From assembly GCA_045863295.1 (NCBI GenBank), contig BTWA01000005.1, positions 1 to 64,000 of the forward strand: a stretch of DNA of 64,000 bases, read 5' to 3'. Shown one piece after another: positions 3,001 to 6,000 of the stretch. Each line of letters opens with the position of its first letter. Positions within the stretch are counted from its first letter, which is position 1. The position numbers were made by a program. Source of the stretch: Candidatus Hydrogenedentota bacterium (GTDB lineage: Bacteria > Hydrogenedentota > Hydrogenedentia > Hydrogenedentales > SLHB01).

Positions 3001-6000
3001 CCGCCAACTCTGTTGCCGGAAGGGTGAACGAGGCCGCATGTCCATCGGGCAGTTCCAACGAGAAATAGTGGTCCACATGCAGTTCGGGGGAATACCGAAA
3101 TTCACCTTGTCCATCCGTTTCGACTTCGCCCAACGGATCGCCCGCTGCTGTCTTTACGGTAACCGGCGTATTCGCCACGGGCTTGCCGTCGGAAAAATAC
3201 GCGTATCCGTGAATGACATCGCCTTCCGCCGTGGCAAACAGATTTACACCATGGGCATGGGCCGTGCATAGGAGGAACAAGGAAATGGATACAAACATAA
3301 CCACGCGCATCATGGCTTTACCACGGCTTCAATCGGATGAGGTACGATTTCGCGGCGATATTCAAACGTCTCCGGACGTACCCGCCGCAGAAAGCTCACG
3401 GCCGACCCGGTTACAAATCCCTCGACGATCATCACGGGCACATGCGCGGCAATCGCATAGCCCGCGACAAGCGCAAAGCTGCGCCCAGACAGCATTAGTG
3501 CGAGGGCTTGCAACAGCGCCGCGGCGGCAATCGAGCCAAACCCCGCGCCAAATCCCAAGGCAAATGCGCGGCCCGGCGAGCCTCTGCGAATGGACGGCAA
3601 TAACCCTGCGTGGCATAGCGCGCCGGGAAGCGCCATGATCACCGTATTGACTCCCAAGGCCGTTATGCCGCCGAATCCAAACAAGATGGCTTGCAGCAGC
3701 AGCCCGATTGCGATCGCGGGAAATACCGCCCAGCCCAACAGCAATCCCGTCAAACCGTTCAGTACGAGATGAACGGACGTGAATCCCAGCGGAACGTGGA
3801 TCAAGGAAGCCACAAAGAAGGCGGACGTCAACACGGCGGTCTTCACAAACGCTTCTTCGTCGAGCTTGCGAAGACCCACAACAACGCCCAACCCTGCCGC
3901 GGCCGTTCCCCCGGCCAATACGGGGGCTGTCAAAACACCGTCCGGGATATGCACCGGTTTACTTGCCTTTCGTCACCGGGTGCGCGCGTACCCACAAGGC
4001 CGCACCCATTTCCAAATCCATTTCATTTCCATCCGGGGACTTCATTTTGGTGTCGCCGTCCACCAGTGCCGCGAAGCCCCACCAGCCGTCCCACGGAATG
4101 CCAAAGGTGAACACGCCGTTGGAATCCGACTTCAACACTTGCGTTACGTGCGCATCCGTTGGAGCCGTCGCATCGCCCTCGGCGTTGTAATACTCTACTT
4201 CGACATGCGCCTCCGGTACCGGTTGGCCTTCCTTCATCACCACCGCCTGGAACACGTTGCCTGCCCAAACTCCATAAGGCCGGGTCAACGGCTTCAATTC
4301 CACGGGAAACCCAACCAGATCATCCCAGCCTGACCAGGATCCATAGGCATCCACTATCACTTTCGTGAAATGCTGAATGTAGGTTTCCTCGGCGGCCTCG
4401 AGATACGGTTCGGGTTCGATATAAAACACATGAGCCCCCGGCCGGTTTACTTTGTACGAAGCCGTAAACGCGCCTTTCCCACCGCGGTCGGCGGGCTTCA
4501 ATGCACTGGATAGGTCCGTCTTCTCTCCGCGCACCATCACGCCGAATTGACGGGGCTGACCCATATCCATGACCGGTCCCCCATCCATCGGATGCGTAAA
4601 CACAATTTCAAAATCGATATCCGGTCCGGTCTTCTCGGATACCGCATCAGTGGATGGCATAAGGACCTGAAAATGGGCGGCTGCCATGGGGGCCATCACG
4701 ACCGATCCCACGATAATCCCCCATCCTGCAACGAATCGCATCATGAGCAACGATACTCCTCTCCATGTTCGATTGTCCGATCGGGCATGGTAGCGGTCCT
4801 TTGAATTGGGCGCAAGAAAAAGGGGGATTGCACGTTCGCAAGGGTTGACATGGCGGCACAGACGTGCTTAAATATACCTGAAAACAGTTTCAGCAACTGG
4901 AGATTGCCCCCAATGGCCAAAGGGTTGACCCGCCGGCAGACCGCCATCCTCGAGTTTATCATCGAATGCATCCGCGACAACGGAATGCCACCCACCATTG
5001 CCGAGATTGGAGAACACTTCGGCATCGTCTCCACCAACGGCGTCAATGACCATTTGGTCGCCCTGGAAAAGAAAGGCTATATCAACCGGACCTCCAAGGC
5101 GCGGTCGATTCAAGTGACCGACCAGGCTGTGGTGGGTCTCTACCGGAGCGAAGTGGGCACCCTGCCGCTGGTGGGCCGGATTGCCGCCGGTTTTCCCATT
5201 CTGGCGCAAGAGAACATTGAAGGACATGTGCCGGTTTCGACCTCGATCGTGAAGCCGGGGGCGTATTGCCTGAAGGTTCAGGGAGACAGCATGATCGAAG
5301 ACGGGATCTTCGATGGCGACACGCTGGTGGTGCATCCGATTTCCGAACCGTCCAAAGGCGATATTGTGGTCGCCCTCATGGAAGACGAGGCGACGGTGAA
5401 GCGCTTCTACCGTCGCGGCGACATGGTCGAGTTGCGGCCGGCAAACCGGGCCATGCAGTCCATTCTGGTCCCCGCGCATATGATTCAGATCCAGGGGAAA
5501 GTGGTCGCGCTGCAGCGTTCGCTGATCTAAAGAGTGGTTCGGCACGGGAGTTGCCCCTGTAATGCGGGAATGGAAACCCGATTACAGGAGATTCCGAAAT
5601 GACTGTTGAGCGTGCGCTTCGTTTGGCGGCGGGTCTGGTAACGTTGTTGTCTCTGGGGTTGGCTGTGTTTGTTCATCCCGGATGGCTTTGGCTGACTGCA
5701 TTTGTAGGCGCCAATCTGCTGCAATCGGCCTTTACCAACTGGTGTCCCGCCAAGACGCTCTTTGAGAAACTTGGCCTGCCTTCTTGCGACTCGGCATCGC
5801 GCAGGCAATCTCAATTGTAGCGTTCGCGCAACGTTGCGTAACACCCCTGAAGTGCGTGCGCAAATTCGTTTTCCGGCTTGGCCGGCTGGAAAGTCCACAC
5901 AATTGCCTAAACTTTTTTGGCATTCCCCATGCATTCCCCGCAAGTGGAATTAGCGTTCCCCCCGGAGAGAACGTGTTGAACAGCCCAATCCAAACCTGGT

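Follow-up and report, generated by a model that had tools for sequence, protein, structure and literature searches.

The lexA locus and its promoter

The window, a stretch of 64,000 nucleotides at the start of contig BTWA01000005.1 of Candidatus Hydrogenedentota bacterium (GCA_045863295.1), carries a lexA gene at positions 4913-5530 of the plus strand. Its 205-aa product matches TIGR00498 with 207.8 bits (cut-off 110.95), aligns with solved LexA structures at an E-value of about 1e-38, and has the winged helix, the Ala-Gly site and the Ser-Lys dyad. The recognition helix, STNGVNDHL (residues 40-48; 5030-5056, plus strand), aligns with SPNAAEEHL of the E. coli protein. Ala92-Gly93 (5186-5191, plus strand) aligns to the AAG motif in LexA chains of solved structure and corresponds to the site at which LexA proteins cleave themselves. 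The autoprotease domain, from the catalytic Ser126 (GDSM) to Lys163 (TVKR) (5288-5401, plus strand), is in register with the same chains.

Between the promoter and the gene lies the palindrome CTGAAAACAGTTTCAG (4878-4893, no strand assigned), the predicted LexA operator, which is the single exact match to CTGAA-N6-TTCAG in the window and scores 21.0 on a matrix trained without the source genome. It ends 19 bp upstream of the lexA ATG, just downstream of the -10 region and over the expected transcription start. The -35 hexamer TTGACA (4845-4850, plus strand) is recognized from the sequence and from homologous promoters. It is followed after 17 bp by a weak, probable -10 element, TTAAAT (4868-4873, plus strand), which was placed by the spacing seen in homologues, and GGAGA (4899-4903, plus strand), read from the sequence, is the probable ribosome-binding site. 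A consensus promoter scan did not call the TTGACA/TTAAAT pair. Among the homologous lexA promoters, 55 of 105 have a TTGAC-like hexamer 33 bp upstream of the box.

A palindrome conserved upstream of lexA

We found lexA in 124 of 135 genomes of the phylum. Leaving out three second paralogues from the 110 loci analysed gives 107 promoters, and within 250 bp of the start 87 of these have an exact CTGAA-N6-TTCAG, 15 a copy with one mismatch, three with two and two with three to four. Thus, 105 of 107 promoters have the box with at most two mismatches, compared to none of 107 in-gene stretches of equal length, although these genomes are kin and locus counts overstate their independence. Shuffled lexA promoters yielded no exact copy in 2140. 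Moreover, an unbiased count of spaced dyads in the lexA promoters ranks TGAA-N6-TTCA first (97/107). Six positions had been called invariant in the first-pass annotation; in the 105 sites this is the case for T2, A5, C14 and A15, but not quite for G3 (104/105) and G16 (103/105).

The box is present at lexA in 13 of 15 families. The exceptions are G033, whose lexA site GTATAAACTTGTTCAG has three mismatches, and G001, in which there are two LexA matches with other helices and no box at either lexA or recA. In family f8 (L071-L079) the residue aligned to E. coli Glu45 is Gly and base 1 of the box is G in nine of nine cases, while base 1 is G in only one of 95 sites where this residue is Asp. Since f8 is one lineage, the change of helix and base counts as one event. 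A record titled as an archaeon (L239) has a LexA inside the Hydrogenedentota clade and an exact box, which is probably a naming or binning error.

The bare word CTGAA-N6-TTCAG shows no genome-wide enrichment, with 5 matches where about 6.8 are expected and 1-18 for other spacer lengths. The significance of the box therefore rests on its position and its conservation.

Candidate regulon genes in the source genome

Ten transcription units had been listed as preceded by the box, and each of them carries a site in the source genome. On a matrix built from 80 distinct lexA sites, all from other genomes, the site before the DinB-family gene scores 21.5, followed by those of lexA (21.0), imuB-dnaE2 (20.3), the Hel308-like helicase gene hel308 (20.2), a 67-aa orphan (19.5), the PA0069 radical SAM gene and dinB (16.8 each), imuA (16.7), mrfA-mrfB (14.6) and recA (12.4); the names imuA, imuB and Hel308-like helicase are given to proteins that score below their family cut-offs. 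As had also been stated, uvrA, uvrB, uvrC and ruvA are without a site: in this genome the best score within 1.5 kb is at most 2.1 for uvrA, uvrB, ruvA and likewise recN, and the best for uvrC is 0.5.

The further statement that these ten sites are the ten best in the genome did not hold, since on the lexA-only matrix mrfA and recA are outscored by several unrelated sites. On a second matrix, balanced over seven genes and also trained without the source genome, regulon genes account for eight of the top 12 sites, with recA at rank 18 and dinB at rank 23. This matrix gives 14 sites scoring at least 16, which is not above every permuted matrix (1-14).

The consensus CTGAA-N6-TTCAG, exact in 87 of 107 lexA promoters, is looser in the regulon, where half-site variants are common: CTGTA at several sites, CTGAT at mrfA and GTGAA at recA. 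A working consensus is (A)CTGWA-N6-TWCAG(T) with an AT-rich spacer. At lexA, the orphan and dinB the box covers the predicted start; at imuA and hel308 it occupies the spacer between the -35 and -10 elements, and at recA it is found further downstream, with GTGAA as its weaker half. The promoters were placed by consensus.

Several candidates were rejected as regulon members, namely a high-scoring site inside a PadR gene, a site before a TetR gene, which is probably TetR's own operator, and other high-scoring sites inside ORFs. Two further sets of sites were of note. The strong site G000:C2:134661 (L115; rank 5 on the gene-balanced matrix) directly follows a TAAAAT hexamer; thyX and a gene for a class II ribonucleotide reductase lie about 440 bp downstream of it. 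In addition, two elements, G000:C29:45046 (L127) and G000:C15:130920 (L128), share the site ACTGAACATATTGACAGT, which overlies the -35 of a TTGACA-17-TACATT promoter; one element adjoins an integrase and a CII-like gene. In both, transcription from this promoter would run antisense into the 3' end of an ORF of about 160 aa, whose C-terminus is alike in the two, and the arrangement is possibly one of antisense induction controlled by the host LexA.

Candidate regulon genes in other genomes

For genes held out from the lexA-only matrix, we scored the best 20-50 loci of each search; the genomes are kin, and orthologous promoters share -10/-35 letters, which may inflate the flanks of the matrix. 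For recA, 47 of 49 loci score at least 10 (control 0/29; one further locus was too short). A score of at least 12 is reached at 19 of 20 hel308 loci, where in-gene stretches used as control score 5.2 at best, at 20 of 29 imuA loci and at 15 of 19 true homologues of the orphan. The dinB loci are divided, with 19 of 30 scoring at least 12 (control 0/30) and 11 of 30 without a site scoring at least 10. At mrfA, 17 of 30 loci score at least 12 and 24 at least 10 (control 0/30), and six have no site scoring at least 10. For uvrA, none of 29 loci, all in the source genome's family, reaches 12.

A pattern scan run blind on four other genomes returned 21 loci. In G106, six of eight sites precede lexA, recA, hel308, the orphan, the radical SAM gene and a DinB-family-like gene; in G034 the scan found lexA and recA plus three unrelated matches. 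The flgC and efflux-gene matches of G069 were not accepted as members. Strong sites were also seen before a Bro-N gene and a DUF5131 gene (L341 in G069; L492, a Hyalangium locus).

A box-like site lies upstream of mraZ in the source genome (G000:C3:182108, L121) and at L360, L361, L365-L367, L375 and L377; six of the sites are 247-250 bp upstream, in three genera. As only six of 30 mraZ loci score at least 12, with two more just under this score, mraZ is not counted as a member.

The orphan (L114:1702-1902, G000:C13:59201-59401; homologues at L315-L332) has homologues in 19 of 135 genomes, 18 of them in the source genome's family, after removal of two of 21 genome matches (a fragment without upstream DNA and a false match). 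A library of representative sequences gave 56 matches, about three of them spurious, and the family has no match in Pfam or NCBIfam and no usable one in the Atlas. Its N-terminus carries a YLF[DE] word, replaced by QLxL-type words in distant homologues. Both resemble the sliding-clamp binding motif, and because of this resemblance the protein might act at the clamp during damage, which we regard as a rather doubtful proposal. When the orphan was modelled together with the sliding clamp, the score was close to zero (0.01), which counts neither for nor against a contact.

The Myxococcus box and its symmetric form

The published SOS box of M. xanthus is CTRHAMRYBYGTTCAGS (PMC9705874), and a closeness of the Hydrogenedentota palindrome to it had been pointed out. 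The comparison bears this out: the 16-bp geometry is common to both, lexA and recA are shared targets, and the recognition helix STNGVNDHL is identical in Hydrogenedentota and Myxococcota LexA. A GTDB scan for the helix STNGVNDHLxAL returned at least 120 loci; of the 80 with titles, most are named as Myxococcota or 'Deltaproteobacteria' and a few as Hydrogenedentota. Among the matches listed, GTTCAG is found in the lexA promoter of 101 of 112 usable loci not of the Hydrogenedentota type, and the left half is loose. The core CTRHA-N6-TTCAG fits 90 of 105 Hydrogenedentota lexA sites.

The lexA site is symmetric in Hydrogenedentota and one-sided in Myxococcota. Moreover, the Hydrogenedentota box has an AT-rich spacer, and the inner C/G of CTGAAC..GTTCAG is relaxed. 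It could thus be argued that the palindrome is a LexA operator whose specificity is separate from that of the Myxococcus box. In favor of this, the full published consensus, with its spacer MRYBYG, fits only one of 105 Hydrogenedentota lexA sites, the G of GTTCAG typical of Myxococcota is found in only nine of 105, and Myxococcota lexA promoters, which keep one good half, mostly score low on the Hydrogenedentota matrix. A quick tree also separates the two sets of LexA into clades (SH-aLRT 97 and 86), and because there are two such clades ancient transfer and shared descent are indistinguishable.

A separate specificity nevertheless appears unlikely in view of the identical helix, the equal geometry, the fit of the core and the Myxococcota sites themselves. 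In M. xanthus AM003 only two sites match CTGWAH-N4-GTTCAG; they precede the PA0069 radical SAM gene (CTGAACGTGCTTTCAG) and lhr (CTGTACCTGTGTTCAG, near-symmetric), and the full published consensus does not fit these two either. Of 29 scorable Myxococcota radical-SAM promoters, 21 are within one mismatch of CTGWA-N6-TWCAG (in-gene control 0), and eight carry an exact CTGAA-N6-TTCAG. Given these palindromes, the motif is not absent outside Hydrogenedentota, and the view of a box specific to this phylum is not supported. A genome scan of M. xanthus at one mismatch showed no excess (60 matches, 81 in the control), and most of the pattern matches in the four remaining Myxococcota genomes do not precede a recognizable repair gene. 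Since the full consensus misfits sites of both phyla, we file the box as a variant of the Myxococcus box and not under the published consensus. Judged by its letters, the palindrome extends the Myxococcus SOS box, in a symmetric variant, to a new phylum.

Expression data lend indirect support at lhr only. The lhr gene of AM003 corresponds to MXAN_RS04795, as both published RT-PCR primers match exactly; the site is read from AM003 and the expression data are from strain DK1622. The name yprA we take to denote a mrfA-type gene. Table S1 of PMC9705874 lists MXAN_RS04795 (lhr) with a log2 value of 2.30 (about 5-fold up) and yprA with 1.88 in the lexA mutant, and the authors class such derepressed genes, lhr included, as indirect LexA targets. 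According to section 15 of the same report, the purified LexA of M. xanthus gives a shift with the boxes of lexA and recA2. Probable further targets common to both LexA proteins are the PA0069 radical SAM gene and mrfA/yprA, and the box points to repair genes that are probably under direct M. xanthus LexA control. The regulons differ: for imuA, imuB and Pol IV the data in PMC9705874 show no derepression in the lexA mutant, whereas imuA and dinB have sites in Hydrogenedentota; conversely, that mutant derepresses uvrA and recN, which lack a site in Hydrogenedentota.

We lean, by a small measure, towards a broader reading in which any LexA that carries the STNGVNDHL helix would have the symmetric CTGWA-N6-TWCAG as its genuine operator. 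The consensus published for M. xanthus, an 'imperfect palindrome', would then reflect the weak sites at lexA and recA2, and M. xanthus LexA would directly repress the PA0069 radical SAM gene as well as lhr, targets that have been missed or called indirect.

A second LexA with its own palindrome

Nine imuA loci lack the main box, and all nine have directly upstream a lexA2 gene whose product has another helix (lexA2 loci: L441, L442, L451-L453, L456, L460, L461, L499-L508). LexA2 (34-40% identical) carries the helix FRAVQ[TS]AREHL. The -35/-10 spacer of lexA2 contains the palindrome CCAGAC-N4-GTCTGG or close variants of it, CCA[G/T]AC-A[A/T]AT-GT[C/A]TG[G/C]. This pattern, derived from eight of the genomes concerned, is present in 10 of 135 genomes with a single copy in each, invariably preceding lexA2 (control 0), and it is mutually exclusive with the main box at imuA. 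Thus, at the nine imuA loci the box is lost where lexA2 takes over, which suggests that the operator follows the repressor. In these 10 genomes a second LexA heads a mutagenesis cassette, as in the lexA2-imuA-imuB-imuC cassette described for P. putida (PMC3901139). The Hydrogenedentota version has the helix FRAVQ[TS]AREHL and the site CCAGAC-N4-GTCTGG, and the likeness is one of cassette layout.

These loci bear on whether LexA is the protein that reads the main box. Another damage regulator, such as a WYL or XRE protein, could do so and count LexA among its targets, in line with the large LexA-independent damage induction described for M. xanthus in PMC9705874. This is improbable, because the box disappears at imuA along with the change of repressor and is absent from G001, which lacks the STNGVNDHL helix. 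Moreover, its overlap with core promoter elements is what a repressor site would show, and the Gly in the f8 helix co-occurs with the G at base 1 (9/9, one event in one lineage). Even less credible is a conserved promoter piece or a chance match that no repressor reads: its fixed distance to the -35 at lexA and the absence of genome-wide enrichment would suit it, but the dyad stays while its placement relative to the -35 and -10 elements varies by gene, and the box is confined to damage genes, with uvrA at 0 of 29.

Discussion

The position of the palindrome, its conservation, the set of genes it precedes, the common recognition helix and the intact catalytic residues of the source LexA all concur. 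We infer from them that LexA binds the palindrome, represses the genes behind it and is relieved upon damage in Hydrogenedentota. With 105 of 107 lexA promoters against 0 of 107 control stretches, and with the held-out genes, the sequence evidence upholds the first-pass annotation in that CTGAA-N6-TTCAG is very probably the operator of the phylum's main LexA.

The LexA dimer would place one STNGVNDHL helix on each half-site and block a promoter of the housekeeping sigma factor. RecA filaments formed upon DNA damage would trigger self-cleavage of LexA at Ala92-Gly93 and thereby open the regulon. This predicted regulon is small and would comprise recA, the translesion polymerase genes dinB, imuA and imuB-dnaE2, the helicase genes mrfA-mrfB and the Hel308-like one, the PA0069 radical SAM gene, the DinB-family gene and the gene for the 67-aa protein; excision repair and ruvA would remain outside.

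The box had been described as joining the ends of the E. coli box to the core of the Gram-positive one, which is fair on the letters. Such a bridging role was reportedly given already to the Myxococcus box, which Mazon et al. 2004 are reported to have placed as a step between the Gram-positive and the E. coli boxes. Table 1 of PMC9578287 gives the E. coli SOS box as TACTG(TA)5CAGTA and the Gram-positive box as CGAAC-N4-GTTCG. With the former, the Hydrogenedentota box shares the 16-bp core, the CTG..CAG ends and the AT-rich spacer, and CTGTA halves occur in the regulon. It differs in favoring A over T as fourth base and in the helix, STNGVNDHL versus SPNAAEEHL; base 4 is A in 100 of 105 lexA sites, which sets these apart from the E. 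coli type CTGT-N8-ACAG. On the Hydrogenedentota matrix the E. coli lexA site scores just 4.1, and the uvrA/ssb intergenic site CTGAATGAATATACAG (L590:17458), which has one CTGAA half, 16.3. With the Gram-positive box it shares the GAA-N6-TTC core at equal spacing. It differs in the outer bases, CT..AG versus C..G, and in that the inner C/G is not required: T precedes GAA in 105 of 105 lexA sites and C follows it in 22.

This is not a new kind of system, and similar LexA reports at the level of a phylum exist for Balneolaeota (PMC7739468) and Bacteroidetes (PMC8565304). As presented there, they resemble the present analysis in approach and in the small regulon of translesion synthesis, helicase and radical SAM genes. 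Their motifs are described as new and confirmed by gel shift, whereas the Hydrogenedentota box belongs to a known class and is predicted from sequence. Our literature search, mostly outside subscription papers and curated regulon databases, found neither a LexA site for Hydrogenedentota nor a symmetric consensus for Myxococcota, and a prior description is possible. Hydrogenedentota would add three items that did not turn up in the literature searched: a Hel308-like helicase whose gene is almost universally part of the SOS response, a 67-aa protein of that response, and a second LexA with its predicted operator CCAGAC-N4-GTCTGG, although no search aimed at that word was made.

The natural sequences found here lie one base per half-site from the E. 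coli box and suit tests of how LexA specificity changes. For M. xanthus, the symmetric form leads to direct and cheap predictions, at lhr and at the radical SAM gene. The analysis corrects the picture of a known box, in that one LexA specificity probably spans two distant phyla. Finally, it provides a predicted SOS regulon for an uncultured phylum, with candidate members of its damage response, the Hel308-like helicase and the 67-aa protein.
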